Source: Escherichia coli (GTDB lineage Bacteria; Pseudomonadota; Gammaproteobacteria; Enterobacterales; Enterobacteriaceae). Taken from it: DNA of 64,000 nucleotides. Numbering within the stretch: position 1 is the stretch's first letter; the number at the start of each line of letters is the position of its first letter. The notes below the pieces were generated by a model, which was not told the origin of the DNA, searched no databases, and worked only from the letters and a program-made list of their open reading frames with translations. A program made the position numbers and the translations under genes. Shown piece by piece: positions 24,601-47,260 of the stretch. The stretch lies in NCBI RefSeq assembly GCF_003334765.1, contig NZ_QOWT01000006.1. One strand, given 5' to 3'.

Positions 24601-25167
24601 CTGGTGCTGGATACGCAATGCTATTCCAACACCGGTGGTCAGGCGTCGAAAGCGACACCGCTGGGTGCAGTAACTAAATTTGGCGAGCACGGCAAACGTA
24701 AAGCGCGTAAAGATCTTGGCGTCAGTATGATGATGTACGGTCATGTTTATGTGGCGCAGATTTCTCTCGGCGCGCAGCTGAACCAGACGGTGAAAGCGAT
24801 TCAGGAAGCGGAAGCGTATCCGGGGCCATCGCTGATCATTGCTTATAGCCCGTGTGAAGAGCATGGTTACGATCTGGCACTCAGCCACGACCAGATGCGC
24901 CAACTCACAGCTACCGGCTTCTGGCCGCTATATCGCTTTGATCCGCGTCGTGCCGATGAAGGCAAACTGCCGCTGGCCTTGGATTCACGCCCGCCGTCAG
25001 AAGCACTGGAAGAAACGTTACTTCACGAGCAACGTTTCCGTCGGCTGAATTCGCAGCAGCCAGAAGTGGCAGAACAGTTATGGAAAGATGCTGCAGCTGA
25101 TTTGCAAAAACGCTATGACTTCCTGGCACAAATGGCCGGAAAAGCGGAAAAAAGCAACACCGATTAA
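21643..25167 (+). CDS. ydbK: pyruvate:flavodoxin/ferredoxin oxidoreductase
   Basis: 1174-aa ORF; two CxxCxxCxxxCP 4Fe-4S ferredoxin motifs and a TPP-binding region. Confidence 0.93.
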   Translation: MITIDGNGAVASVAFRTSEVIAIYPITPSSTMAEQADAWAGNGLKNVWGDTPRVVEMQSEAGAIATVHGALQTGALSTSFTSSQGLLLMIPTLYKLAGELTPFVLHVAARTVATHALSIFGDHSDVMAVRQTGCAMLCAANVQEAQDFALISQIATLKSRVPFIHFFDGFRTSHEINKIVPLADDTILDLMPQVEIDAHRARALNPEHPVIRGTSANPDTYFQSREATNPWYNAVYDHVEQAMNDFSAATGRQYQPFEYYGHPQAERVIILMGSAIGTCEEVVDELLTRGEKVGVLKVRLYRPFSAKHLLQALPGSVRSVAVLDRTKEPGAQAEPLYLDVMTALAEAFNNGERETLPRVIGGRYGLSSKEFGPDCVLAVFAELNAAKPKARFTVGIYDDVTNLSLPLPENTLPNSAKLEALFYGLGSDGSVSATKNNIKIIGNSTPWYAQGYFVYDSKKAGGLTVSHLRVSEQPIRSAYLISQADFVGCHQLQFIDKYQMAERLKPGGIFLLNTPYSADEVWSRLPQEVQAVLNQKKARFYVINAAKIARECGLAARINTVMQMAFFHLTQILPGDSALAELQGAIAKSYSSKGQDLVERNWQALALARESVEEVPLQPVNPHSANRPPVVSDAAPDFVKTVTAAMLAGLGDALPVSALPPDGTWPMGTTRWEKRNIAEEIPILKEELCTQCNHCVAACPHSAIRAKVVPPEAMENAPASLHSLDVKSRDMRGQKYVLQVAPEDCTGCNLCVEVCPAKDRQNPEIKAINMMSRLEHVEEEKINYDFFLNLPEIDRSKLERIDIRTSQLITPLFEYSGACSGCGETPYIKLLTQLYGDRMLIANATGCSSIYGGNLPSTPYTTDANGRGPAWANSLFEDNAEFGLGFRLTVDQHRVRVLRLLDQFADKIPAELLTALKSDATPEVRREQVAALRQQLNDVAEAHELLRDADALVEKSIWLIGGDGWAYDIGFGGLDHVLSLTENVNILVLDTQCYSNTGGQASKATPLGAVTKFGEHGKRKARKDLGVSMMMYGHVYVAQISLGAQLNQTVKAIQEAEAYPGPSLIIAYSPCEEHGYDLALSHDQMRQLTATGFWPLYRFDPRRADEGKLPLALDSRPPSEALEETLLHEQRFRRLNSQQPEVAEQLWKDAAADLQKRYDFLAQMAGKAEKSNTD

Positions 25168-25195
25168 ATGCTCTGGATAAGGATTATCCAATTCT

Positions 25196-25306
25196 AAAAA
25201 AAAAGCCCGGACGACTGTTCGGGCTTGTCTTTTTATATGTTGGAAAATCAGTGGCAATGCAATGGCCCAACAGAAAATAAAATCTGTGACAATAAAGGCA
25301 TATAAC
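25196..25306 (-). ncRNA. micC: MicC small RNA (Hfq-dependent repressor of ompC)
   Basis: Reverse complement matches the recalled MicC sequence (GTTATATGCCTTTATTGTCACAG...), ending in a GCCCGGACG hairpin plus U-run; divergent from ompN. Confidence 0.8.
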
Positions 25307-25533
25307 CCGCGCAGAATAACGTATAGCAAATTAAAAGTATAATTTTTATTTTGTATGTATTATCTTCGATACATTCACCAGACTTATTATCATTTCAGAG
25401 GAATTATTTGATTAAGGTTTTACTTAAGGCGTAACAAATGATATTTATCGGCTAACTGAACTTCTCCTTTAGGATGTTTTCACTCCCCGAAATGGGGATA
25501 AAAGGCAAATAAAATAACTAAAGGATTTATTCA

Positions 25534-26667
25534 ATGAAAAGCAAAGTACTGGCACTTTTAATTCCTGCCCTGCTCGCCGCAGGTGCTGCACATGCAGCCG
25601 AAGTTTATAATAAAGACGGCAACAAATTAGATCTGTATGGCAAAGTTGATGGCCTGCATTATTTTTCTGATAATTCAGCGAAAGATGGCGACCAGAGCTA
25701 TGCGCGTCTGGGTTTTAAAGGCGAAACCCAAATTAACGATCAACTCACTGGCTACGGTCAATGGGAATACAATATTCAGGCAAACAACACTGAATCTTCA
25801 AAAAACCAGTCATGGACCCGTCTGGCATTTGCCGGGCTGAAATTTGCAGATTACGGTTCTTTCGATTACGGACGTAATTATGGCGTAATGTACGACATCG
25901 AAGGCTGGACCGATATGCTGCCTGAATTTGGCGGTGACTCTTATACCAATGCAGACAACTTTATGACTGGTCGAGCCAATGGCGTCGCGACTTATCGTAA
26001 TACTGATTTCTTCGGTCTGGTAAATGGTCTGAACTTCGCGGTGCAGTATCAAGGTAACAACGAAGGAGCCAGTAATGGTCAGGAAGGCACCAACAACGGA
26101 CGTGATGTTCGCCATGAAAACGGTGACGGCTGGGGTCTTTCCACAACATATGATTTAGGCATGGGCTTTAGCGCTGGTGCGGCATACACCTCTTCTGACC
26201 GCACCAATGACCAGGTTAACCATACTGCGGCGGGTGGTGATAAAGCAGACGCGTGGACTGCTGGGCTAAAATACGATGCTAACAATATTTACCTGGCAAC
26301 CATGTATTCAGAAACGCGTAATATGACCCCGTTTGGCGACAGCGATTATGCTGTGGCAAACAAAACCCAGAATTTTGAAGTCACTGCACAGTACCAGTTT
26401 GATTTTGGTCTGCGTCCGGCAGTCTCTTTCCTGATGTCTAAAGGCCGTGACCTGCACGCTGCGGGTGGTGCAGACAACCCGGCAGGTGTTGATGATAAAG
26501 ATCTGGTTAAATACGCCGATATTGGCGCGACTTACTATTTCAATAAAAACATGTCCACCTACGTTGACTATAAAATCAACCTGTTGGATGAAGATGACAG
26601 CTTCTACGCTGCCAATGGCATCTCTACCGATGATATTGTCGCTTTAGGTCTGGTTTATCAGTTCTAA
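25534..26667 (+). CDS. ompN: outer membrane porin N
   Basis: 377-aa ORF; signal peptide and C-terminal ...YQF porin signature. Confidence 0.92.
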
Positions 26668-26675
26668 ATCCTCCT

Positions 26676-26700
26676 GCCCGCTGTTATGGCGGGCTTTTTC
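26676..26700 (+). terminator. rho-independent terminator of ompN
   Basis: GCCCGC / GCGGGC stem followed by TTTTT. Confidence 0.7.
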
Positions 26701-26726
26701 TGCTTATTCTTCCTCCTTTGATCTAA

Positions 26727-27242
<516 letters not shown>

Positions 27243-27248
27243 CACTAA

Positions 27249-27275
27249 CGCCCGCACATTGCTGCGGGCTTTTTG
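27249..27275 (+). terminator. rho-independent terminator of uspF
   Basis: CCCGCA / TGCGGG hairpin followed by TTTTT. Confidence 0.65.
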
Positions 27276-27418
27276 ATTCATTTCGCAAATGTGCTGACAT
27301 TTTCCCCTCTAATCCGTACCATACACGCCACAGTTTTTTATATCAGATTTCTTATGCTGGGCGTTCCGGCATGACGCATACTCTTCTGATGCCATATAAC
27401 GAATTGAGTCGCTTTTAA

Positions 27419-28354
27419 ATGTCGCAAAATCAAGAAATTAGTAAGAAAGAACAATACAACCTGAACAAATTACAAAAACGTCTGCGTCGTAACGTGGGCG
27501 AAGCCATTGCTGACTTCAATATGATTGAAGAAGGCGATCGCATCATGGTTTGCCTCTCCGGGGGTAAAGACAGCTATACCATGCTGGAGATTCTGCGCAA
27601 TTTGCAGCAAAGCGCGCCAATCAATTTTTCGCTGGTGGCTGTTAACCTCGATCAAAAGCAACCGGGCTTCCCGGAACACGTTCTGCCCGAGTATCTTGAA
27701 AAGCTGGGCGTTGAGTACAAGATTGTTGAAGAGAATACTTACGGTATCGTGAAAGAGAAGATTCCAGAGGGCAAAACCACTTGCTCACTGTGTTCTCGCC
27801 TTCGTCGCGGTATCCTTTATCGTACCGCAACGGAACTGGGGGCGACGAAGATCGCGTTGGGTCACCATCGTGACGATATCCTGCAAACGTTGTTCTTAAA
27901 TATGTTCTACGGCGGTAAGATGAAAGGTATGCCTCCGAAACTGATGAGCGATGATGGCAAACATATCGTTATTCGTCCGCTGGCCTACTGCCGCGAGAAA
28001 GATATTCAGCGATTTGCCGATGCAAAAGCGTTCCCGATTATTCCGTGCAACCTGTGCGGTTCACAGCCTAACCTGCAACGTCAGGTGATTGCTGACATGT
28101 TGCGTGACTGGGATAAACGTTATCCAGGGCGTATCGAGACGATGTTCAGCGCGATGCAGAATGTGGTGCCGTCGCATCTGTGCGATACCAACCTGTTCGA
28201 TTTCAAAGGCATCACCCACGGTTCTGAAGTGGTTAACGGGGGTGATCTGGCGTTTGATCGCGAAGAGATCCCACTACAACCGGCGTGCTGGCAGCCAGAA
28301 GAAGATGAAAATCAGTTGGATGAGTTACGGCTGAATGTGGTTGAAGTGAAATAA
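27419..28354 (+). CDS. ttcA: tRNA 2-thiocytidine(32) synthetase
   Basis: 311-aa ORF with SGGKDS PP-loop motif and CxxC pairs; uninterrupted native 3' end. Confidence 0.92.
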
Positions 28355-28357
28355 CCA

Positions 28358-28448
28358 GGATAGCGCCCGATGCGCAAGCGTATCGGGCTACTCTTATGGA
28401 GGCCGGATAAGACGCGGCCAGCGTCGCATCCGGCAATCCCGAATAAGA
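28358..28448. repeat. REP/BIME repetitive extragenic palindromes
   Basis: GCCGGATAAGACGCGGCCAGCGTCGCATCCGGCA-type units read between ttcA and dbpA. Confidence 0.8.
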
Positions 28449-28482
28449 TGTTTACTCTTGCACCCGGCAATTCAACATTTCA

Positions 28483-29856
28483 TTATTTTAATAACCGCAC
28501 CCGGCACGTTTTTCCTTTAATCTTCCCGCCCTGTAACTGTTTCCATGCTTTATGAGCAACAGCCTGACGGACCGCGACATAGACATGCGCCGGATGCACG
28601 GCGATTTTGCCAATATCTGCGCCATCAAGCCCGATATCTCCTGTCAGTGCACCTAATACATCACCCGGGCGCATTTTGGCTTTTTTCCCGCCATCGATAC
28701 ACAACGTTGCCATTTCTGCTTCCAGCGTCGCAATGGAACTATTAGCTGGCGGCGTTTGCCAGTTAAGTTTTATCTGCAACATGTCAGAAATGATATTGGC
28801 CCGCTGTGCTTCTTCCGGAGCACAGAAACTGATCGCCAGACCGCTATTTCCTGCACGAGCTGTACGACCGATGCGATGTACATGAACTTCAGGGTCCCAC
28901 GCCAGCTCAAAGTTCACCACCAGCTCAAGCGATTTAATATCCAGACCACGCGCAGCAACATCAGTCGCGACCAGTACACGGGCGCTACCGTTAGCAAAAC
29001 GTACCAGGGTCTGATCGCGATCGCGTTGCTCCAAATCGCCGTGTAATGACAATGCACTTTGCCCTACTTCATTCAGCGCGTCGCAGACAGCCTGGCAATC
29101 TTTTTTGGTATTGCAAAACACCACGCAAGAGGATGGCTGATGCAAGCTTAATAACCGTTGCAACAGAGGAATTTTGCCTTTGCTGGATGTCTCATAAAAT
29201 TGTTGTTCAATGGGTGGCAAAGCATCTGTTGAGTCAATTTCAATCGCCAAAGGATCGCGTTGCACTCGTCCGCTGATTGCAGCGATGGCTTCCGGCCAGG
29301 TTGCCGAAAACAGAAGCGTCTGTCGAGATGCAGGCGCAAAACGGATGACATCATCAATGGCATCGCTAAATCCCATATCCAGCATGCGGTCGGCCTCATC
29401 CATCACCAGCGTATTCAACGCATCCAGTGATACCGTGCCTTTTTGCAGGTGATCCAGCAAACGCCCCGGCGTTGCCACGATAATATGCGGCGCATGTTGC
29501 AACGAATCACGCTGCATACCGAACGGTTGACCACCGCACAACGTCAAAATTTTGGTATTTGGCAGAAAACGCGCCAGCCGACGCAATTCACCTGCCACCT
29601 GATCCGCCAGTTCACGCGTAGGACACAGCACTAAAGCCTGGGTTTGAAATAGCGACGCATCAATTTGCTGTAACAAGCCGAGGCCAAAAGCCGCCGTTTT
29701 GCCGCTGCCGGTTTTCGCCTGCACGCGAACATCTTTTCCGGCAAGGATCGCCGGAAGCGCGGCGGCCTGCACCGGCGTCATGGTTAAATAACCCAACTCA
29801 TTAAGGTTCGTGAGTTGGGCGGGAGGCAAAACATTCAGGGTAGAAAAAGCGGTCAC
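28483..29856 (-). CDS. dbpA: ATP-dependent DEAD-box RNA helicase (23S rRNA hairpin 92 specific)
   Basis: 457-aa ORF with Walker A (AKTGSGKT), DEAD and SAT motifs. Confidence 0.93.
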   Translation of the reverse strand: MTAFSTLNVLPPAQLTNLNELGYLTMTPVQAAALPAILAGKDVRVQAKTGSGKTAAFGLGLLQQIDASLFQTQALVLCPTRELADQVAGELRRLARFLPNTKILTLCGGQPFGMQRDSLQHAPHIIVATPGRLLDHLQKGTVSLDALNTLVMDEADRMLDMGFSDAIDDVIRFAPASRQTLLFSATWPEAIAAISGRVQRDPLAIEIDSTDALPPIEQQFYETSSKGKIPLLQRLLSLHQPSSCVVFCNTKKDCQAVCDALNEVGQSALSLHGDLEQRDRDQTLVRFANGSARVLVATDVAARGLDIKSLELVVNFELAWDPEVHVHRIGRTARAGNSGLAISFCAPEEAQRANIISDMLQIKLNWQTPPANSSIATLEAEMATLCIDGGKKAKMRPGDVLGALTGDIGLDGADIGKIAVHPAHVYVAVRQAVAHKAWKQLQGGKIKGKTCRVRLLK

Positions 29857-29885
29857 AATCTATTCTCGTGGTCATCGACGCAAAG

Positions 29886-30059
29886 TTAGCAGGCGCGTAT
29901 CCTCGCAGATCTACGCTCACGATGCGACAATTTAATCGGTTCTTCATCGGGTGGTGGGTCAGGCATGGGTTGCGGGCGAGGGATCGGATCGGGCACTGGA
30001 ACAGGATCGCCAGGAATCGGTTCAGGGACAGGAATTTGCAAATAAATAAGTGTCGTCAT
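29886..30059 (-). CDS. 57-codon proline-rich small ORF (MTTLIYLQIPVPEPIPGDPVPVPDPIPRPQPMPDPPPDEEPIKLSHRERRSARIRAC)
   Basis: ATG preceded by GAGGG Shine-Dalgarno at about 5 nt; too short for the ORF track; lies between fnrS and the dbpA start. Confidence 0.45.
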   Translation of the reverse strand: MTTLIYLQIPVPEPIPGDPVPVPDPIPRPQPMPDPPPDEEPIKLSHRERRSARIRAC

Positions 30060-30116
30060 ATTTCCCTCTGGTCATTGGGTGGACTCTTAAAGGGTAGACG
30101 CTGATAAATAACAGGC

Positions 30117-30238
30117 AAAAAAAAGCCGACTCATCAAAGTCGGCGTCGTACGAATCAATTGTGCTATGCAGTAATTCAAAAAAGGAAGTAAGACAATATG
30201 GAGCGCAACGCCCATCGCTTGACGTTGCATTCACCTGC
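30117..30238 (-). ncRNA. fnrS: FnrS small RNA (FNR-activated, Hfq-dependent)
   Basis: Reverse complement matches the recalled FnrS sequence (GCAGGTGAATGCAACGTCAAGCGATGGGCG...), ending in a GCCGACT hairpin plus U-run; about 122 nt. Confidence 0.75.
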
Positions 30239-30273
30239 AAGAGAGATATTGCCCTGAATGGGTAGAGAGTTTA

Positions 30274-30287
30274 TTGACTTCGCTCAA
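30274..30287. promoter_or_regulatory. FNR box (TTGAC-N4-CTCAA) centred about 42 bp upstream of the fnrS 5' end
   Basis: Near-consensus FNR half-sites at class II activation spacing. Confidence 0.55.
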
Positions 30288-30333
30288 ACTTTGCGGCGTT
30301 TTTGTATACAGACAGCCGGAAAAATTGCTTTTG

Positions 30334-31338
<1,005 letters not shown>

Positions 31339-31571
31339 TTATTTTGTAGTCTAGCCTTCTGGCCCTGTTACGCAACATCTCATCACCCCATTACCCTGAA
31401 ATGATTAATAAAATTCTGTCTAAATTGAATACAAAAAGCAAAATGCTTTTCCGTATACAAACCGTGTGAAGTGTTAAATAGCGTCTATCATTATCAGAAT
31501 TATCTGATCATATGACGTGGCTTTTTTGCGATCGGATAGCAACAAAAATTGATAAAAATAACGGGATCTCA

Positions 31572-32804
31572 ATGATTACGCACAACTTCAATACCCTGGA
31601 CTTACTCACCAGTCCTGTCTGGATCGTTTCGCCCTTTGAGGAACAGTTAATTTATGCCAATAGCGCGGCGAAACTGTTGATGCAAGACCTCACGTTTAGT
31701 CAGCTACGAACCGGACCCTATTCCGTCTCCTCACAAAAAGAACTGCCGAAATACCTCTCCGATCTGCAAAACCAACACGATATTATCGAAATCCTCACTG
31801 TTCAGCGTAAAGAAGAGGAAACAGCATTGAGCTGTCGGCTTGTTTTGCGAAAGCTGACAGAAACAGAACCGGTGATTATTTTCGAAGGTATCGAAGCGCC
31901 GGCAACGCTGGGTTTAAAAGCCAGTCGCTCGGCAAATTATCAGCGCAAAAAACAAGGTTTTTATGCGCGCTTTTTTCTGACTAACTCTGCACCAATGTTG
32001 TTGATTGACCCGTCACGAGATGGACAAATCGTCGATGCTAACCTCGCCGCGCTCAATTTCTATGGTTATAACCATGAAACGATGTGCCAGAAACATACCT
32101 GGGAAATAAATATGCTCGGGCGTCGCGTCATGCCTATCATGCATGAAATCTCGCATTTACCCGGTGGTCATAAACCTTTGAATTTTGTTCATAAACTGGC
32201 GGATGGTTCGACTCGTCATGTGCAGACCTATGCCGGACCGATTGAAATTTATGGCGACAAGCTCATGTTATGTATTGTGCATGATATTACTGAGCAAAAA
32301 CGGCTGGAGGAGCAGCTGGAACATGCTGCTCACCATGACGCGATGACCGGATTACTGAATCGGCGACAGTTTTATCACATTACGGAACCAGGCCAAATGC
32401 AGCATCTCGCCATCGCTCAGGATTACAGCTTGTTGCTCATCGACACCGATCGTTTTAAACACATTAACGATCTCTATGGGCATTCTAAAGGTGATGAGGT
32501 GTTATGCGCCCTCGCCCGCACCCTCGAAAGTTGCGCTCGCAAAGGCGATTTGGTGTTTCGTTGGGGAGGCGAAGAGTTTGTCTTATTGCTACCAAGAACC
32601 CCACTGGATACCGCGCTTTCGCTGGCTGAAACTATCCGCGTAAGCGTGGCAAAAGTGAGTATTTCGGGCTTACCACGCTTTACCGTCAGCATTGGTGTGG
32701 CGCATCACGAAGGAAATGAAAGCATCGATGAACTGTTTAAACGCGTTGATGATGCTTTGTATCGGGCGAAAAATGATGGACGCAACCGCGTGCTGGCGGC
32801 ATAA
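31572..32804 (+). CDS. dgcM: PAS-domain diguanylate cyclase
   Basis: Track ORF trimmed to ATG at 31572 (MITHNFNTLDLL...), 410 aa; GGEEF motif present. Confidence 0.9.
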   Translation: MITHNFNTLDLLTSPVWIVSPFEEQLIYANSAAKLLMQDLTFSQLRTGPYSVSSQKELPKYLSDLQNQHDIIEILTVQRKEEETALSCRLVLRKLTETEPVIIFEGIEAPATLGLKASRSANYQRKKQGFYARFFLTNSAPMLLIDPSRDGQIVDANLAALNFYGYNHETMCQKHTWEINMLGRRVMPIMHEISHLPGGHKPLNFVHKLADGSTRHVQTYAGPIEIYGDKLMLCIVHDITEQKRLEEQLEHAAHHDAMTGLLNRRQFYHITEPGQMQHLAIAQDYSLLLIDTDRFKHINDLYGHSKGDEVLCALARTLESCARKGDLVFRWGGEEFVLLLPRTPLDTALSLAETIRVSVAKVSISGLPRFTVSIGVAHHEGNESIDELFKRVDDALYRAKNDGRNRVLAA

Positions 32805-32824
32805 GCCGCGGATGCGTCTCGAGA

Positions 32825-33388
32825 TCAACGACTGCGCTTAGCGTGGCGCTCCCAGTTTTCTTGCTTCGCCTGCGCCGTTTTACGTAGTGCGACGTAACAC
32901 GCCCCGCTGCCGCCATGATGCGGTAGCGCGGTGCAATATGCCTGAACATCATCAAATTCGGTCAGCCAGCGCGCCACATAGCTGCGGACAATATTGGCAT
33001 GCGATTTATCATCCCGCCCTTTACCATGAATAATCAGCACGTTACGCAAACCATCCGCCAGGGCTTGTTGAATAAAACTGAACACCATTTTGCGGCACTC
33101 TTCCACCGGCTGGCGCAAAAGATTCAGGCTCGCCTGTTGCGGATATTTACCACTGCGCAGCTTATCCAGCACCCCATGTTGCAACCCTTCCCGCCGAAAC
33201 TCCAGCGGCTGACTTAGTGGGATGATGTCGAGAAATCCGGTGGTGAGGAAATTATCAAGCTGCAGCGTGTCGATACGCTGCGGCGCACGTTGGTTACGCG
33301 TTGGATGCCAGTGGACATCGGTAGCACGTTTCAGCGGCTGGACATCTTCCATGGCGTCAAGAAACAGCGATTTGTCGTCAAGGTTCAT
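32825..33388 (-). CDS. smrA: Smr-domain putative endonuclease
   Basis: 187-aa ORF; Smr-domain-like C-terminal region; synteny. Confidence 0.85.
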   Translation of the reverse strand: MNLDDKSLFLDAMEDVQPLKRATDVHWHPTRNQRAPQRIDTLQLDNFLTTGFLDIIPLSQPLEFRREGLQHGVLDKLRSGKYPQQASLNLLRQPVEECRKMVFSFIQQALADGLRNVLIIHGKGRDDKSHANIVRSYVARWLTEFDDVQAYCTALPHHGGSGACYVALRKTAQAKQENWERHAKRSR

Positions 33389-33615
33389 GTTACATCCTCC
33401 CGCAATTAAGAGCGCGATATGATAACCAGACCGGGTCGGTCCAACAACGTATTACCCAAATTTCCAGTAATAAGTTCCAAATATTGCCGATATTTTAAGC
33501 AAAATACTTATGCATGATTATTCATTCACGATATTAATAATGTAACTTATATTTTCGTGAAATCTGTCACTGAAGAAAATTGGCAACTAAAGGTTAAAAC
33601 CGTTATAACACAGTC

Positions 33616-33709
33616 ACCGGCGCAGAGGAGACAATGCCGGATTTAAGACGCGGATGCACTGCTGTGTGTACTGTAGAGTCTGGCGGATGTCGACAGACTC
33701 TATTTTTTT
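33616..33709 (+). ncRNA. mcaS: McaS (IsrA) small RNA
   Basis: Matches the recalled McaS sequence ACCGGCGCAGAGGAGACAATGCCGGATTTAAGACGCGGATGCACTG... with GGA motifs and a terminal hairpin plus U7. Confidence 0.8.
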
Positions 33710-33717
33710 ATGCAGTT

Positions 33718-34626
33718 TTAACTTTGCAGATAGCCGCATTCTCGCCGGAATTGCGTGATTAATGACGCGGTCAGTGGTGTCTGGCGACTATCACGCCGCT
33801 GAATCAAATAATAGGCCGCTTTCGGTAAAATTTCGCTAACCGGCAACATCACCAGCCCCTGTCCGTGCAAGGGATCGCAGCCCATTTCTTCAGGCAGTAT
33901 GCTGAGAAAATCGCTTTTTGCCACCAGACTGATACAGGCTGAGAACGTCTCGCAGACTACACCGACCTGTGGCGTTTGCGCCTGATCGTCAAGCAATTCA
34001 CTCAACTGTTTGTAGTAGCTGCCGTGTGGCGTCGGCATTGTCCAGCTGTAATCCAGTAACTGTTTGATCGAACGGGCACCAATGGCGGGGTGTCCCGGGC
34101 GGCAAAAGATCGCGAATTGCTTTTCCAGTAATTTCTCAAAAGTAAATTCGTGGTCGTACGGTCCCTGATAATAGGTATTGATGGTGAAATCCAATTCTCC
34201 CTGACGCAATTCATTAATCATCGACACCAGTTGCCCTTCCATAATGCGTACTTTTACCTGCGGATGCTGCTGATGAAAACGAGATATGACAGCTGGCATC
34301 AGACTGCGGGAAATACTGGCCCCCATGCCGATATTAATCTGCCCTGCCAGTTGCCCTTGTCGTTGGCGAATATCCTCTTGGGCTGCGCGCAGCTCTTCAA
34401 GAATTAGACTGGCGTGCTGATAAAAACTTTCACCGGCATCAGTTAACGTCACGCCTTTACTACGGCGAAAAAAGAGTTGCGCCGCTAACCCTTCTTCTAG
34501 CTCCTGAATAGATTTACTCAGTGCCGGTTGCGACATATTCAACATTCGGCTCGCTCCGCGAATGCTGCCCTGACGAGCCACTTCAACAAAAGCCCGAATT
34601 TGATGAATTTTTACCTGAAAAGCCAT
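33718..34626 (-). CDS. abgR: LysR-family regulator of the abg operon
   Basis: 302-aa ORF with N-terminal LysR HTH; divergent from abgA. Confidence 0.9.
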   Translation of the reverse strand: MAFQVKIHQIRAFVEVARQGSIRGASRMLNMSQPALSKSIQELEEGLAAQLFFRRSKGVTLTDAGESFYQHASLILEELRAAQEDIRQRQGQLAGQINIGMGASISRSLMPAVISRFHQQHPQVKVRIMEGQLVSMINELRQGELDFTINTYYQGPYDHEFTFEKLLEKQFAIFCRPGHPAIGARSIKQLLDYSWTMPTPHGSYYKQLSELLDDQAQTPQVGVVCETFSACISLVAKSDFLSILPEEMGCDPLHGQGLVMLPVSEILPKAAYYLIQRRDSRQTPLTASLITQFRRECGYLQS

Positions 34627-34801
34627 GACGCCACCGATAACCGTTATTTATCAGACCAAAGAAACTGGCATCTACTTTAATGCAGATGATTGTGTCAGGG
34701 TAATTTATGAACGGTTAAAACTGTGAAAAATCAGTTAGTGATAAGTAAAAACTATCGCTACGTGAACCGGGTCACACTTTTTACTGATGACGGGAAAGGT
34801 T

Positions 34802-36112
34802 ATGGAGTCTTTGAATCAATTTGTTAATTCGCTTGCCCCAAAATTATCGCACTGGCGACGTGATTTTCATCACTATGCAGAGTCTGGCTGGGTGGAATTC
34901 CGCACTGCCACCCTTGTTGCGGAAGAATTGCACCAGCTCGGCTATTCACTGGCGCTGGGTCGCGAAGTAGTTAATGAAAGTAGCCGGATGGGATTACCTG
35001 ATGAATTCACTCTACAACGCGAATTCGAGCGCGCTCGTCAACAGGGTGCGCTAGCACAATGGATTGCGGCTTTTGAAGGTGGTTTCACTGGTATCGTCGC
35101 CACCCTGGATACCGGTCGCCCCGGTCCGGTGATGGCTTTCCGTGTCGATATGGACGCGCTGGATCTCAGTGAAGAGCAGGATGTCAGCCATCGCCCCTAC
35201 CGCGACGGTTTTGCGTCATGTAACGCCGGAATGATGCATGCCTGTGGTCATGATGGACATACCGCCATTGGGCTTGGGCTGGCGCATACCCTTAAACAGT
35301 TCGAGTCCGGACTACATGGCGTCATCAAACTGATTTTTCAGCCTGCAGAGGAAGGTACGCGTGGCGCGCGGGCGATGGTCGATGCAGGTGTCGTAGATGA
35401 TGTTGATTATTTTACTGCCGTGCACATTGGCACTGGCGTACCTGCGGGCACCGTGGTGTGCGGCAGTGATAATTTTATGGCAACCACCAAATTTGACGCG
35501 CACTTCACCGGTACCGCCGCTCACGCAGGCGCAAAACCAGAAGACGGTCACAATGCCTTGTTGGCGGCAGCACAAGCCACTCTTGCACTGCATGCAATCG
35601 CCCCGCACAGCGAAGGAGCTTCCAGAGTAAACGTGGGCGTTATGCAGGCAGGAAGCGGTCGTAACGTTGTTCCTGCCTCGGCGTTGCTGAAAGTGGAAAC
35701 ACGCGGGGCCAGCGACGTCATTAATCAATATGTTTTTGACCGTGCACAACAAGCGATTCAGGGCGCAGCAACCATGTATGGTGTCGGCGTTGAAACTCGT
35801 CTGATGGGTGCAGCTACCGCCAGTTCTCCTTCGCCGCAATGGGTCGCATGGTTGCAAAGTCAGGCGGCTCAGGTCGCGGGGGTCAATCAGGCCATTGAAC
35901 GTGTTGAAGCGCCTGCGGGTTCCGAAGATGCCACATTAATGATGGCCCGCGTGCAGCAACATCAAGGGCAAGCCTCCTACGTGGTGTTTGGCACACAGCT
36001 GGCGGCAGGTCATCACAACGAAAAATTCGATTTTGACGAGCAGGTTCTCGCTATTGCCGTCGAAACGCTGGCGCGCACCGCGCTCAATTTTCCCTGGACG
36101 CGAGGTATCTGA
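34802..36112 (+). CDS. abgA: p-aminobenzoyl-glutamate hydrolase subunit A (M20 peptidase)
   Basis: Track ORF trimmed to ATG at 34802 (MESLNQFVNSL...), 436 aa. Confidence 0.9.
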   Translation: MESLNQFVNSLAPKLSHWRRDFHHYAESGWVEFRTATLVAEELHQLGYSLALGREVVNESSRMGLPDEFTLQREFERARQQGALAQWIAAFEGGFTGIVATLDTGRPGPVMAFRVDMDALDLSEEQDVSHRPYRDGFASCNAGMMHACGHDGHTAIGLGLAHTLKQFESGLHGVIKLIFQPAEEGTRGARAMVDAGVVDDVDYFTAVHIGTGVPAGTVVCGSDNFMATTKFDAHFTGTAAHAGAKPEDGHNALLAAAQATLALHAIAPHSEGASRVNVGVMQAGSGRNVVPASALLKVETRGASDVINQYVFDRAQQAIQGAATMYGVGVETRLMGAATASSPSPQWVAWLQSQAAQVAGVNQAIERVEAPAGSEDATLMMARVQQHQGQASYVVFGTQLAAGHHNEKFDFDEQVLAIAVETLARTALNFPWTRGI

Positions 36113-37557
36113 TGCAGGAAATCTATCGTTTTATCGACGATGCGATTGAAGCCGATCGCCAACGTTATACCGATATTGCCGATCAAATCTGGGATCATCC
36201 AGAAACACGTTTTGAAGAGTTCTGGTCAGCGGAGCATCTGGCTTCGGCGCTGGAATCTGCAGGCTTCACCGTTACCCGCAACGTAGGCAATATCCCAAAT
36301 GCCTTTATTGCTTCGTTTGGTCAAGGCAAACCGGTTATCGCCCTGCTGGGAGAATATGACGCCCTGGCAGGTTTAAGTCAGCAAGCAGGTTGCGCGCAAC
36401 CTACATCCGTGACGCCCGGTGAAAATGGTCACGGTTGCGGACACAATTTGCTGGGAACCGCCGCCTTTGCCGCTGCAATAGCCGTCAAGAAATGGCTGGA
36501 ACAATATGGGCAAGGCGGCACGGTGCGCTTTTATGGTTGTCCTGGCGAAGAAGGCGGCTCGGGTAAAACGTTCATGGTTCGCGAGGGGGTATTTGATGAT
36601 GTGGATGCGGCACTCACCTGGCACCCGGAAGCCTTTGCCGGTATGTTCAATACCCGCACGCTGGCAAACATTCAGGCATCATGGCGCTTTAAAGGGATCG
36701 CAGCACATGCCGCGAATTCCCCTCATTTGGGACGCAGCGCCCTTGATGCCGTAACGTTGATGACCACTGGCACCAACTTCCTCAACGAACATATTATTGA
36801 AAAAGCGCGCGTACACTATGCCATCACAAATAGCGGCGGGATCTCGCCCAACGTGGTCCAGGCGCAGGCAGAAGTGCTTTATCTTATCCGCGCCCCCGAA
36901 ATGACCGACGTGCAGCATATTTATGATCGGGTCGCCAAAATCGCCGAAGGTGCGGCATTGATGACCGAAACCACGGTTGAATGCCGCTTCGACAAAGCCT
37001 GTTCCAGTTATCTCCCGAATCGCACCTTAGAAAATGCCATGTACCAGGCCCTATCCCATTTTGGTACCCCGGAATGGAACTCCGAAGAACTGGCTTTTGC
37101 GAAACAAATTCAGGCTACGCTCACCTCCAACGATCGGCAAAACAGTCTGAATAATATCGCCGCAACCGGTGGCGAAAACGGCAAGGTTTTTGCACTACGT
37201 CATCGTGAAACGGTACTGGCGAATGAAGTCGCTCCATATGCCGCCACCGATAACGTGCTTGCGGCATCGACTGATGTCGGCGACGTCAGTTGGAAACTGC
37301 CTGTTGCCCAGTGTTTCAGCCCCTGTTTTGCCGTCGGTACACCGCTACATACGTGGCAACTGGTTAGCCAGGGGCGAACATCTATTGCTCATAAAGGAAT
37401 GCTGCTGGCGGCGAAAACTATGGCAGCAACCACAGTCAATCTCTTCCTTGATTCAGGGCTATTGCAAGAATGCCAACAAGAGCATCAGCAAGTAACGGAC
37501 ACGCAACCGTATCACTGCCCTATCCCGAAAAACGTGACACCGTCACCTTTAAAATAA
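36112..37557 (+). CDS. abgB: p-aminobenzoyl-glutamate hydrolase subunit B (M20 peptidase)
   Basis: 481-aa ORF; start overlaps abgA stop (ATGA). Confidence 0.9.
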   Translation: MQEIYRFIDDAIEADRQRYTDIADQIWDHPETRFEEFWSAEHLASALESAGFTVTRNVGNIPNAFIASFGQGKPVIALLGEYDALAGLSQQAGCAQPTSVTPGENGHGCGHNLLGTAAFAAAIAVKKWLEQYGQGGTVRFYGCPGEEGGSGKTFMVREGVFDDVDAALTWHPEAFAGMFNTRTLANIQASWRFKGIAAHAANSPHLGRSALDAVTLMTTGTNFLNEHIIEKARVHYAITNSGGISPNVVQAQAEVLYLIRAPEMTDVQHIYDRVAKIAEGAALMTETTVECRFDKACSSYLPNRTLENAMYQALSHFGTPEWNSEELAFAKQIQATLTSNDRQNSLNNIAATGGENGKVFALRHRETVLANEVAPYAATDNVLAASTDVGDVSWKLPVAQCFSPCFAVGTPLHTWQLVSQGRTSIAHKGMLLAAKTMAATTVNLFLDSGLLQECQQEHQQVTDTQPYHCPIPKNVTPSPLK

Positions 37558-37593
37558 CAACAACAACGCAAACACAACAACCGAGGAATGCCC

Positions 37594-39120
37594 ATGAGTA
37601 TGTCATCCATACCGTCGTCCTCCCAATCCGGGAAGCTCTATGGCTGGGTCGAAAGAATTGGTAACAAGGTTCCCCATCCTTTTCTGCTCTTTATCTATTT
37701 GATTATCGTACTCATGGTGACGACGGCAATTTTGTCGGCCTTTGGCGTCAGTGCGAAAAACCCGACCGATGGTACGCCGGTCGTGGTGAAAAACCTGCTC
37801 AGTGTGGAAGGATTACACTGGTTTTTACCCAATGTTATTAAAAACTTTAGCGGTTTTGCTCCACTTGGTGCGATCCTGGCGCTGGTTTTAGGTGCCGGTC
37901 TGGCGGAGCGCGTCGGCTTACTGCCAGCACTAATGGTTAAAATGGCATCGCATGTTAATGCCCGCTACGCCAGTTATATGGTGCTGTTTATTGCTTTTTT
38001 CAGCCACATTTCTTCCGATGCGGCGTTAGTGATCATGCCACCGATGGGTGCGCTGATTTTTCTGGCGGTGGGCAGGCATCCAGTTGCAGGTTTACTGGCT
38101 GCCATTGCAGGCGTAGGTTGCGGCTTTACGGCTAATTTACTGATTGTCACAACCGACGTGTTGCTGTCGGGGATCAGCACGGAAGCGGCAGCTGCGTTCA
38201 ATCCGCAAATGCACGTCAGTGTAATTGATAACTGGTATTTTATGGCCAGCTCCGTAGTCGTACTGACGATTGTTGGCGGCCTGATAACCGACAAAATCAT
38301 CGAGCCACGGTTAGGTCAATGGCAGGGAAACAGCGATGAGAAACTGCAGACATTGACCGAAAGTCAGCGTTTTGGTTTACGCATAGCAGGTGTCGTATCG
38401 CTACTTTTTATTGCTGCGATTGCGCTGATGGTGATCCCGCAAAACGGGATATTGCGCGATCCGATTAATCACACCGTGATGCCATCACCCTTTATTAAAG
38501 GTATCGTGCCACTGATCATTCTTTTTTTCTTTGTTGTCTCGCTGGCTTATGGCATCGCTACCCGCACAATTCGACGTCAGGCGGATTTACCGCATTTAAT
38601 GATTGAACCGATGAAAGAGATGGCGGGATTTATCGTGATGGTTTTTCCCCTCGCCCAATTTGTCGCCATGTTTAACTGGAGCAACATGGGGAAATTCATC
38701 GCCGTGGGGCTGACCGATATACTGGAAAGTTCAGGGCTTAGCGGCATCCCGGCGTTTGTCGGTCTGGCGTTGCTTTCCTCTTTCTTATGCATGTTTATTG
38801 CCAGCGGTTCCGCAATCTGGTCGATTCTTGCCCCCATTTTCGTACCAATGTTTATGCTACTTGGCTTTCACCCGGCATTTGCGCAAATCCTCTTTCGTAT
38901 TGCCGACTCATCCGTATTGCCTTTAGCGCCGGTATCTCCTTTTGTTCCACTGTTTCTTGGATTCCTGCAACGCTACAAACCAGACGCGAAACTGGGTACT
39001 TACTATTCGTTAGTCTTGCCCTATCCACTTATCTTTTTGGTGGTATGGCTGCTGATGTTGCTGGCGTGGTATCTTGTCGGTCTGCCGATAGGTCCGGGTA
39101 TTTACCCACGTTTGTCTTAA
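37594..39120 (+). CDS. abgT: p-aminobenzoyl-glutamate transporter
   Basis: Track ORF trimmed to ATG at 37594 (MSMSSIPSS...), 508 aa; polytopic membrane protein. Confidence 0.88.
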
Positions 39121-39130
39121 GAGAGAACGG

Positions 39131-39646
39131 ATGCTGAGATTACTTGAAGAAAAAATTGCCACGCCACTGGGTCCACTGTGGGTGATTTGCGATGAGCAAT
39201 TTCGCCTGCGGGCGGTTGAATGGGAAGAGTACAGCGAACGCATGGTGCAGCTGCTGGACATCCATTATCGCAAAGAAGGCTATGAGCGCATTTCTGCCAC
39301 CAATCCAGGCGGTTTAAGCGACAAGCTTCGTGAATATTTTGCCGGTAATCTTAGCATTATTGATACGCTTCCCACTGCTACGGGGGGGACGCCATTTCAG
39401 CGCGAAGTCTGGAAAACACTACGCACTATCCCCTGCGGGCAGGTAATGCATTACGGCCAACTGGCTGAGCAATTGGGCCGTCCTGGCGCGGCGCGTGCCG
39501 TTGGTGCGGCAAACGGATCGAATCCCATCAGCATCGTCGTACCTTGCCATCGGGTTATTGGCCGAAACGGCACCATGACCGGATATGCAGGCGGAGTTCA
39601 GCGAAAAGAGTGGTTATTGCGCCATGAAGGTTATCTTTTGCTGTAA
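39131..39646 (+). CDS. ogt: O6-alkylguanine-DNA alkyltransferase
   Basis: 171-aa ORF with PCHRV active-site motif. Confidence 0.93.
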
Positions 39647-39807
39647 ACATTAAACAATTTGTGCCAGCTTGTTCACACTTTTATGTAAAGTTACCCTTAA
39701 CAACTTAAGGGTTTTCAAATAGATAGACATATATTTACATCTAATATCGGAATTCTCTGCTGTTAAGGTTTGCTTAGACTTACTTGCTCCCTAAAAAGAT
39801 GTTAAAA

Positions 39808-39821
39808 TTGACAAATATCAA
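39808..39821. promoter_or_regulatory. FNR box (TTGAC-AAAT-ATCAA) in the fnr promoter (autoregulation)
   Basis: Consensus FNR site 20-33 bp upstream of the fnr ATG. Confidence 0.7.
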
Positions 39822-39840
39822 TTACGGCTTGAGCAGACCT

Positions 39841-40593
39841 ATGATCCCGGAAAAGCGAATTATACGGCGCATTCAGTCTGGCGGTTGTGCTATCCATTGC
39901 CAGGATTGCAGCATCAGCCAGCTTTGCATCCCGTTCACACTCAACGAACATGAGCTTGATCAGCTTGATAATATCATTGAGCGGAAGAAGCCTATTCAGA
40001 AAGGCCAGACGCTGTTTAAGGCTGGTGATGAACTTAAATCGCTTTATGCCATCCGCTCCGGTACGATTAAAAGTTATACCATCACTGAGCAAGGCGACGA
40101 GCAAATCACTGGTTTCCATTTAGCAGGCGACCTGGTGGGATTTGACGCCATCGGCAGCGGCCATCACCCGAGCTTCGCGCAGGCGCTGGAAACCTCGATG
40201 GTATGTGAAATCCCGTTCGAAACGCTGGACGATTTGTCCGGTAAAATGCCGAATCTGCGTCAGCAGATGATGCGTCTGATGAGCGGTGAAATCAAAGGCG
40301 ATCAGGACATGATCCTGCTGTTGTCGAAGAAAAATGCCGAGGAACGTCTGGCTGCATTCATCTACAACCTGTCCCGTCGTTTTGCCCAACGCGGCTTCTC
40401 CCCTCGTGAATTCCGCCTGACGATGACTCGTGGCGATATCGGTAACTATCTGGGCCTGACGGTAGAAACCATCAGCCGTCTGCTGGGTCGCTTCCAGAAA
40501 AGCGGCATGCTGGCAGTCAAAGGTAAATACATCACCATCGAAAATAACGATGCGCTGGCCCAGCTTGCTGGTCATACGCGTAACGTTGCCTGA
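39841..40593 (+). CDS. fnr: fumarate/nitrate reduction global regulator FNR
   Basis: Track ORF trimmed to ATG at 39841 ([29 protein letters not shown]...), 250 aa; N-terminal Cys cluster. Confidence 0.95.
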
Positions 40594-40744
40594 TTTTTCC
40601 GCATAACTCACTATCCTTCTGTCATATCATTAAATTTTTCTGATTTATTGATCTGGCAGAAGGTTCATCACTGTTTCATTCACCAGATATGGGTTAATCT
40701 TTTAATTACAAACTGCGTTGACAGTTGTTGTAAGGAGACCCTGT

Positions 40745-41695
40745 ATGGCTATGTATCAGAACATGCTCGTTGTTATCGATCCTAACCAGGACGACCAACC
40801 AGCATTGCGGCGAGCTGTTTATTTACATCAACGGATTGGTGGCAAAATTAAAGCCTTTTTGCCGATCTATGACTTCTCATACGAAATGACCACCCTGCTC
40901 TCCCCGGACGAACGTACCGCTATGCGTCAGGGCGTCATCAGCCAGCGTACAGCCTGGATCCACGAGCAGGCAAAATATTATCTCAATGCTGGCGTTCCCA
41001 TTGAAATTAAAGTGGTCTGGCATAACCGTCCTTTCGAAGCCATCATTCAGGAAGTGATCAGCGGCGGACACGATTTGGTGCTAAAAATGGCGCACCAACA
41101 TGACCGTCTGGAAGCGGTGATTTTTACGCCAACGGACTGGCATCTGTTACGCAAATGCCCAAGCCCGGTGTGGATGGTGAAAGACCAGCCGTGGCCGGAA
41201 GGAGGCAAGGCGCTGGTGGCGGTGAATCTCGCCAGTGAAGAGCCGTATCATAATGCGCTCAATGAAAAACTGGTCAAAGAGACGATCGAACTGGCAGAAC
41301 AAGTCAACCATACCGAAGTTCATCTGGTTGGCGCTTATCCGGTAACGCCAATTAATATCGCGATTGAACTGCCGGAATTTGACCCGAGCGTTTATAACGA
41401 TGCCATTCGTGGGCAACATTTGCTGGCAATGAAAGCCCTGCGGCAGAAATTCGGCATTAATGAAAACATGACGCACGTAGAAAAAGGTCTGCCAGAAGAG
41501 GTGATTCCTGATTTGGCGGAGCACTTACAGGCGGGGATTGTGGTTCTGGGCACGGTAGGACGCACCGGTATTTCAGCAGCATTCCTCGGCAACACGGCGG
41601 AACAGGTGATTGATCATCTTCGCTGCGACCTGCTGGTCATTAAACCTGACCAGTATCAGACACCCGTTGAACTGGATGACGAAGAAGACGATTAA
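40745..41695 (+). CDS. uspE: tandem-domain universal stress protein E
   Basis: Track ORF trimmed to ATG at 40745 ([12 protein letters not shown]...), 316 aa. Confidence 0.9.
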
Positions 41696-41715
41696 CGACT
41701 CTTCAATAACTGACA

Positions 41716-41742
41716 AGGCCCGAGTTATCGGGCCTATTTTTT
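41716..41742. terminator. rho-independent terminator between uspE and ynaJ
   Basis: AGGCCCGA / TCGGGCCT hairpin followed by TTTTTT. Confidence 0.7.
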
Positions 41743-41744
41743 AC

Positions 41745-42002
41745 TTACTGCTCTTCGCCGCCAAGGAAATAAATTCCCAACGGGATTGCCAGCAACACAG
41801 TAAAGACCAGGCTATAAACAAAAATCATCGATGACTGAATCACATACATTGATGTCGTCCACTCAGACAGCGGAATATTGTACTGTTCTATAACGCCGCC
41901 GATGGTCGCGCGAGTCACAACCGACGCCGCAATAATGAAAACCGCCAACAAACCAAAGAGAAATTTCTTCCCTTTCGCTGACTTCAGTTTCGCCATAATC
42001 AT
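41745..42002 (-). CDS. ynaJ: DUF2534 small inner-membrane protein
   Basis: 85-aa ORF with two predicted transmembrane segments; synteny. Confidence 0.8.
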   Translation of the reverse strand: MIMAKLKSAKGKKFLFGLLAVFIIAASVVTRATIGGVIEQYNIPLSEWTTSMYVIQSSMIFVYSLVFTVLLAIPLGIYFLGGEEQ

Positions 42003-42245
42003 GATGTAATCCTTGTGCAGACAAATTTCTTGTTACCTAAACGTAACAATACCATGACATTTCACCGTTGTCTGCTCTGAAAACCTCACCTCTTAGCTGG
42101 ATTTACAATCAACGCATTGATTAGTTAGCTAATGTTGCTACTTCCTTCCCTGACTATTGATGATCTGAATGAATTGTCGCGGTAAAATAGCCCCGCCAGG
42201 GGTTTCCGGCATGACGACAATTATCTGGAGGAGCCTGATAAAACA

Positions 42246-43277
42246 ATGATCGCTGAACTGTTTACAAATAATGCGCTTAATCTGGTCATTATTTTCGGTA
42301 GCTGCGCAGCATTGATTCTGATGAGCTTTTGGTTTCGCCGTGGAAATCGTAAAAGAAAAGGATTTTTATTCCATGCGGTGCAATTTTTAATCTACACCAT
42401 AATTATCAGTGCTGTTGGTAGCATTATTAATTATGTTATAGAAAACTATAAACTCAAATTTATCACCCCAGGCGTTATCGATTTTATCTGTACGTCCCTG
42501 ATTGCGGTTATTCTGACGATTAAGCTATTTCTGCTGATTAATCAGTTTGAAAAACAGCAGATTAAAAAAGGTCGCGATATCACCAGTGCGCGGATTATGT
42601 CGCGTATCATCAAAATCACCATTATTGTGGTGCTTGTTCTGCTTTATGGCGAACATTTCGGCATGAGCCTTTCTGGCTTGCTGACCTTTGGTGGTATTGG
42701 TGGTCTGGCTGTCGGTATGGCCGGTAAAGATATTCTGAGTAACTTCTTTTCCGGGATTATGCTCTATTTCGACCGTCCTTTCAGTATTGGCGACTGGATC
42801 CGTTCACCGGACAGAAATATCGAAGGTACAGTAGCGGAAATTGGCTGGCGAATTACCAAAATTACGACCTTTGATAATCGTCCATTGTACGTACCGAACT
42901 CGCTGTTTTCGTCGATCAGCGTAGAAAACCCAGGACGAATGACCAACCGCCGCATTACCACGACCATTGGTTTACGTTATGAGGATGCGGCAAAAGTGGG
43001 CGTTATTGTCGAAGCTGTACGTGAGATGCTGAAAAATCACCCGGCCATCGACCAGCGACAAACCTTACTGGTTTATTTCAACCAGTTTGCTGACTCTTCA
43101 TTGAATATTATGGTTTATTGCTTTACCAAAACCACGGTATGGGCTGAATGGCTTGCTGCACAGCAAGACGTTTATTTGAAGATTATCGATATTGTACAGT
43201 CACACGGCGCGGACTTTGCCTTCCCCAGCCAGACGCTGTATATGGATAACATTACACCGCCGGAACAGGGTCGCTAA
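42246..43277 (+). CDS. ynaI: MscS-family low-conductance mechanosensitive channel
   Basis: 343-aa ORF; N-terminal transmembrane helices and MscS-like C-terminal domain. Confidence 0.88.
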
Positions 43278-46302: not shown

Positions 46303-47260
46303 ATGAGGAACGGAATGATGAATAATAAAGTCAGCTTCACTAACAGCAATAATCCAACCATCTCTTTGTCTGCAGTGATCTATTTCCCTCCAAAATTTGA
46401 TGAAACCCGTCAGTATCAGGCAATTGTGTTATCTCACCCAGGTGGGGGCGTTAAAGAACAAACGGCCGGAACCTATGCCAAAAAACTGGCGGAAAAGGGA
46501 TTTGTCACTATTGCTTATGACGCATCTTATCAAGGTGAAAGTGGCGGCGAGCCGCGTCAGTTAGAAAACCCATACATTCGTACTGAAGACATCAGTGCCG
46601 TGATTGATTACCTGACAACGCTTTCTTATGTCGACAATACCCGAATTGGTGCGATGGGAATTTGTGCCGGTGCAGGATATACAGCCAATGCTGCAATTCA
46701 GGATCGCCGCATCAAGGCCATCGGTACCGTTAGTGCGGTCAATATTGGTTCGATATTCCGTAATGGTTGGGAAAACAATGTGAAATCTATTGATGCCCTG
46801 CCATACGTTGAAGCGGGTTCAAACGCCAGAACCAGCGATATTAGCAGCGGAGAATACGCCATTATGCCACTGGCACCAATGAAGGAGTCCGATGCGCCGA
46901 ACGAAGAACTGCGTCAGGCCTGGGAGTATTACCACACCCCTCGCGCGCAGTATCCAACAGCACCGGGTTACGCTACTTTGCGCAGCCTTAAGTTACGCTA
47001 CTTTGCGCAGCCTTAACCAGATTATTACCTATGATGCTTACCATATGGCGGAAGTGTACCTGACTCAGCCGACGCAGATTGTGGCGGGCAGCCAGGCAGG
47101 GAGCAAATGGATGAGTGACGACCTGTACGATCGAGCATCAAGCCAGGATAAACGCTATCACATTGTTGAAGGCGCAAACCATATGGATCTTTATGACGGC
47201 AAAGCCTATGTGGCTGAAGCAATTTCAGTATTAGCTCCGTTCTTTGAGGAAACTCTGTAA
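46303..47260 (+). pseudogene. ycjY: ycjY (dienelactone hydrolase / S9-like hydrolase) disrupted by a 25-bp tandem duplication
   Basis: Track ORFs 46303..47016 and 46892..47260 are in different frames; deleting one 25-bp copy fuses them into one ORF of about 310 codons. Confidence 0.8.
46967..47016 (+). repeat. perfect 25-bp tandem duplication (GTTACGCTACTTTGCGCAGCCTTAA x2) inside ycjY
   Basis: Read directly at 46967-46991 and 46992-47016. Confidence 0.95.

Follow-up and report, generated by a model that had tools for sequence, protein, structure and literature searches.

The interval between the divergent genes ynaJ and ynaI in the Escherichia coli DNA described here (positions 42003 to 42245 of the window, i.e., of the whole 64-kb stretch that was analysed) very probably, at roughly 95%, represents an intact, species-typical spacer and an ancestral empty site that was never entered by IS5. 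According to this reading, the IS5F copy of K-12 was inserted at a TTAG sequence that is still unoccupied in the window, and the DNA comes from a wild strain that is closely related to K-12 and lacks the Rac prophage. The absence of IS5 at this location is the norm for the species, and the locus is the ordinary majority allele of an already known, K-12-specific IS polymorphism.

The gene order in the window is abgT, ogt, fnr, uspE, ynaJ (-), ynaI (+), mppA, pgrR, and comparison of the gene order places it in the reverse orientation of MG1655. The ynaJ gene (41745 to 42002, minus strand, start codon at 42002-42000) encodes a DUF2534 family inner-membrane protein of 85 amino acids; its ORF is 100% identical to the b1332 flank in MG1655, and the same gene is annotated as ynaJ in the identical locus of strain SHP24. 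The ynaI gene (42246 to 43277, plus strand, with its ATG starting at 42246) encodes an MscS-family low-conductance mechanosensitive channel of 343 amino acids, is identical to b1330 of MG1655, and is annotated as such in the SHP24 locus. The uninterrupted spacer between these genes measures 243 bp (42% G+C) and is the unoccupied form of the locus in which IS5F resides in K-12. The ORF list contained no transposase-like ORF in 42003-42245, neither the IS5 terminal repeat GGAAGGTGCGAATAAG nor the 16-bp IS5 terminal inverted repeats GGAAGGTGCGAA(T/C)AAG were detected in the 64-kb window when up to 3 mismatches were allowed, and the full 1195-bp IS5F of MG1655 gave no blastn match to the window. 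Likewise, an element of approximately 1.2 kb encoding an InsH/Ins5A transposase was found neither among the ORFs of the interval nor by blastn of the whole window, and a 4-bp YTAR direct duplication around an insert is absent from the window, the flanks being contiguous. The coordinates given in an earlier note on this DNA, which had described the interval as 243 bp of ordinary intergenic DNA without a transposase ORF or IS repeats, proved exact, and its description agrees with the empty repeat search and blastn result.

The annotation of NC_000913.3 places "insertion sequence:IS5F" at 1396044-1397238, including insH4 (b1331), between ynaI (b1330) and ynaJ (b1332). This bears out the statement in the earlier note that K-12 MG1655 carries an IS5 (insH) copy between these genes, and removes the possibility, raised in the same note, that MG1655 might have no IS5 at this position. 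Moreover, a publication of the Saier laboratory includes this copy, named "ynaI/ynaJ", among the 11 IS5 copies of strain BW25113 (PMC11677980, Table 1). The MG1655 spacer of 1442 bp corresponds exactly to the 243 bp of the window plus the 1195 bp of IS5 and a target duplication of 4 bp. Alignment of the window by blastn to 90 kb of MG1655 yielded three colinear alignments (12428-27468, 27426-42128, and 42125-64000) that were separated by only two breaks, the first corresponding to Rac and the second to the position of IS5F. At the latter break, the alignments overlap by exactly 4 bp, 42125 to 42128, which pinpoints TTAG (CTAA on the MG1655 plus strand) as the IS5 target that is present as a single copy in the window and doubled around IS5F in K-12; this is the target-site duplication for which the earlier note had proposed an alignment to MG1655. 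The consensus of IS5 targets is YTAR, with which TTAG/CTAA is in agreement. CTAA and CTAG have both been named as IS5 sites (PMC11677980).

In the multiple alignment, the K-12 sequence on the ynaJ side runs from GATTAGTTAG directly into GGAAGGT, the ynaI side shows CACCTTCC adjoined by TTAGCTAATG, and the plus-strand flanks of IS5 in MG1655 read gCTAA and CTAAc. The window contains GATTAGTTAGCTAATG at this position, in which the two K-12 flanks meet across a single target copy, and no footprint is seen. The TTAG that directly precedes the target (42121-42124) is native and is also found in K-12. The flanking genes and the spacer of MG1655 are identical to the window base for base (100%), and the two loci differ in that MG1655 contains the 1195-bp IS5F and a second copy of the TTAG target, which occurs once and is unoccupied in the window. 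Short reads often mis-assemble repeats such as IS5, and an IS5 copy that is present in the real genome could have been collapsed out of the assembly; however, collapsed IS copies normally break contigs and do not vanish, and an IS that was skipped would leave the duplicated target (TTAGTTAG plus TTAG), whereas the window has the sequence that is found in 5056 uninterrupted complete genomes. Such an assembly artefact is considered the least probable of the alternatives, with a negligible chance of being correct.

The other break in the alignment with MG1655 coincides with the Rac attachment region, which is unoccupied in the window (27426 to 27468, the overlap of the MG1655 alignments that flank Rac) and is located in the 5' end of ttcA, an intact ORF of 311 amino acids (27419-28354, plus strand). 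The window joins MG1655 position 1434959 directly to position 1411941 with a 43-bp overlap (27426-27468), demonstrating that Rac is precisely missing, and no Rac sequence was found anywhere in the 64-kb window. The absence of the Rac prophage that had been claimed earlier is therefore upheld, both by the alignment jump at the att site and by the lack of Rac sequence. The 5' end of ttcA differs from that of K-12 at positions 27434, 27441, and 27442, since it is native in the window and supplied by Rac in K-12. Some K-12 derivatives are Rac-free, and absence of Rac alone is indecisive for the lineage.

A comparison of the 64 kb with MG1655 revealed only 10 substitutions, along with two 1-bp indels and a single 25-bp duplication. 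Three markers of the K-12 lineage, i.e., IS5F between ynaI and ynaJ, the Rac cryptic prophage in ttcA, and the ycjV/ymjB frameshift pseudogene, are all lacking in the window. Since both IS5F and Rac are absent, the source is, as judged from its sequence, not a K-12 laboratory strain, and the small number of differences from MG1655 (10 substitutions and few indels in 64 kb) identifies it, on the same basis, as a very close wild relative of K-12 instead of a distant background. The non-K-12 background that was proposed earlier therefore stands insofar as the source is not a K-12 laboratory strain, but the evolutionary distance that the term suggests needs qualification.

Individual differences were also noted outside the spacer. 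An extra C at 56419, relative to MG1655 position 1381774, turns the ycjV/ymjB pseudogene pair of K-12 into a single intact gene in the window, and SHP24 carries the identical sequence, annotated there as encoding an intact ATP-binding protein of an ABC transporter. A 25-bp tandem duplication (two copies of GTTACGCTACTTTGCGCAGCCTTAA) at 46967-47016 frameshifts ycjY into ORFs 46303-47016 and 46892-47260; MG1655 contains one 25-bp copy and an intact ycjY of 306 amino acids, and the identical SHP24 locus is annotated as "frameshifted". At 19407, between ldhA and ydbH, the A-run has one base fewer than its counterparts in MG1655 and SHP24, which is due to a private indel or else to an error in sequencing the homopolymer; the best 25-kb matches also display a single 1-bp gap.

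The best matches to the window are isolates from humans, pigs, and food. The swine faeces isolate SHP24 is 100% identical to the window over 25000-64000, and within 1-25153 the two are distinguished by 7 substitutions and 1 indel; the confinement of these mismatches to one part of the window is consistent with a recombination boundary or simply with a closely related clone. Over 1-25000, the closest strains are ML35, H3, the IAL72xx strains, and NCTC9087, and none of the 5426 complete genomes provided a perfect match to 1-25000 or an exact match to the whole window.

These comparisons bear on two further origins of the empty site. A K-12 derivative could have lost both IS5F and Rac at a later stage, whether these were excised precisely or were removed scarlessly by genome engineering, as in reduced-genome strains free of IS elements, and would then resemble the window in being 99.98% identical to MG1655 outside both elements and in having both of them precisely missing, with one TTAG and one att core left behind. 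Such a loss is nevertheless highly improbable in view of the 10 SNPs in 64 kb, the absence of the K-12 ycjV frameshift, the presence of a 25-bp ycjY duplication that MG1655 does not have, and the 39 kb that are identical to wild swine and human isolates. Moreover, IS excision is very rare, with one case among the 857 IS events recorded in mutation-accumulation lines (PMC5009759), because of which a site that was never occupied is favoured over one from which the element was lost. The excision of IS5F has left no footprint at 42125-42128 if it occurred, the sequence matching thousands of empty sites exactly. Hybrid laboratory strains do exist, and the evidence spans the 64-kb window only, such that this segment of a K-12 genome might have been replaced by DNA of a wild relative via conjugation or transduction, which would have restored the empty site. 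However, not a single K-12-private marker was seen across the 64 kb and there is no positive sign of a recombination boundary, leaving a K-12 hybrid with a probability as slight as that of secondary loss.

The absence of an element cannot be tested against chance, and the frequency of the empty site was taken as the relevant measure. The state of the spacer was scored with a 343-bp query centred on it among 5426 complete E. coli genomes, of which 5056 (93%) have an uninterrupted spacer, and the best match to the query reached an identity of 99% or more in 5365 of the 5423 records that had a match. Uninterrupted genomes span all major lineages, including O157:H7, O127:H6, NC101, UPEC, ETEC, and environmental strains. 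The exact junction between IS5F and the ynaJ side, detected by a 141-bp query across it, occurs in 346 complete genomes; 60 of these 346 carriers were listed by name, and all 60 are K-12 laboratory derivatives, including MG1655 variants, C600, J53, DH5alpha, DH1, NCM3722, RR1, HST04, and ER strains. Empty sites are thereby spread over many lineages, and occupied ones belong, as far as the 60 named carriers of the 346 are concerned, to a single clone. Some 21 genomes fall outside both categories, with a spacer that is not intact and without the K-12 junction (one of these, WEM25, was looked at), and the region had no match in 3 of the 5426 genomes. Members of the majority class, such as SHP24 (NZ_CP104788.1), ST540, NCTC9066, O157:H7, and NC101, share the 243-bp spacer, with 100% identity to the 343-bp query in many of them, and the window fits into this class without any notable difference.

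Parsimony across these genomes suggests that the empty site is the ancestral state. Given that the empty state is widespread, that the named junction carriers are all K-12, and that excision is rare, the preferred explanation is a site that was never occupied and an IS5F that is private to K-12. A single copy of IS5F (insH4) would have entered the K-12 lineage at the TTAG corresponding to 42125-42128, upstream of both genes, with 122 bp separating it from the start codon of ynaJ and 117 bp from that of ynaI. The insertion would have duplicated 4 bp and moved ynaJ and ynaI 1.2 kb apart, and the inserted IS5 would separate both promoters without destroying either of them.

The beach-water isolate WEM25 (NZ_CP061530.1) has an independent insertion in the spacer between ynaJ and ynaI, where its annotation shows an IS1A transposase. 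The overlap of the WEM25 flank alignments assigns the 9-bp target of this insertion to 42137 to 42145, i.e., 9 bp from the IS5 target of K-12. The events differ in the element involved and in the length of its target (9 bp for IS1A), and the window lacks this insertion as well. Because IS5 in K-12 and IS1A in WEM25 landed only 9 bp apart, the AT-rich centre of the spacer (42121-42145) might be a structural hot spot for IS elements, with IS5F perhaps having altered how the YnaI channel and/or YnaJ are expressed in K-12, although this combined proposal is regarded as doubtful. If it is true, the published ynaI expression data from K-12 would be unrepresentative of the species, and the window would provide the natural reference allele.

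With respect to the regulation of both genes, an Rfam scan of 41600-42400 (E<=1) returned no match, and hence no known RNA element in the spacer, and a scan of 41650-42400 with the standard sigma-70 consensus detected no promoter. A looser scan provided weak matches that agree with only 8 of 12 consensus positions. They comprise a candidate ynaI promoter at 42135-42164 (TTGCTA/GATGAT), an alternative candidate for ynaI at 42160-42188 (ATGATC/TAAAAT), and a candidate ynaJ promoter at 42074-42046 (CAGACA/TG-TATTGT). Every one of these candidates falls on its own gene's side of 42125-42128, which suggests that the insertion point leaves each core promoter next to the gene that it serves. If the candidates are real, IS5 in K-12 would replace everything upstream of about -40 to -70 of each promoter.

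Two other sequence features of the spacer were considered as regulatory elements and dropped. The perfect palindrome TTGTTAC-N6-GTAACAA (42030-42049) lies between 28 and 47 bp upstream of ynaJ, counted from the start codon, where it partly coincides with the candidate ynaJ promoter region; it was not retained as an operator because the divergent strain AST85 carries changes in the right arm and in the palindrome's spacer, at positions 42039, 42040, 42042, and 42044. On the minus strand, a hairpin resembling a terminator (42211-42194) was within chance expectation, with 2 such hairpins found versus 0.7 +/- 0.9 in shuffled sequences. The G+C-rich hairpin (GCCCCGCCAGGGGT) at 42191-42211, in the presumed ynaI leader, carries the same minus-strand flag and is likewise no more than chance would give.

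IS5 insertions are known to activate adjacent operons, including bglGFB, flhDC, glpFK, and fucAO. Assays of such activating insertions have been used previously (PMC11677980). The geometry of IS5F in K-12 is similar, as the element is positioned upstream of promoters and approximately 120 bp from two start codons; the likeness is one of geometry and concerns K-12 only, the window being without IS5. In the K-12 strain Frag1, the ynaI transcript is easy to detect and exceeds that of mscS in abundance (PMC3508906), which indicates that IS5 does not silence ynaI. A literature search did not yield any study of the effect of IS5F on ynaI or ynaJ expression, or of occupied versus empty alleles. The suggestion in the earlier note that ynaI may be regulated differently in this DNA puts the comparison the wrong way round: if there is any regulatory difference at ynaI, it would make K-12 the deviant, derived allele and the window the norm.

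A documented consequence of this IS5 copy concerns genome stability in K-12. In a W3110 CGSC stock, IS5 b1331 recombined with a second IS5 next to ogt, resulting in deletion of ynaJ-uspE-fnr, and the same publication refers to fnr deletions that had been reported before for MG1655 stocks of the CGSC (PMC2072959). The window represents the same locus as in these deletion-bearing K-12 stocks, but is without IS5 b1331. With an empty site, one of the recombination partners is missing, because of which this IS5-IS5 route to fnr loss would be unavailable in the strain from which the window derives.

Finally, the ynaI expression study mentioned above relied on a strain of K-12 (PMC3508906), where IS5 breaks the upstream region at 117 bp from the start codon, and the native promoter context of ynaI, as found in the window, appears not to have been studied previously. 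Overall, the finding is of little importance and is useful mainly as a strain marker: K-12 is characterised by IS5F at ynaI/ynaJ together with Rac at ttcA, and the joint absence of the two marks a non-laboratory strain despite near-identical DNA.
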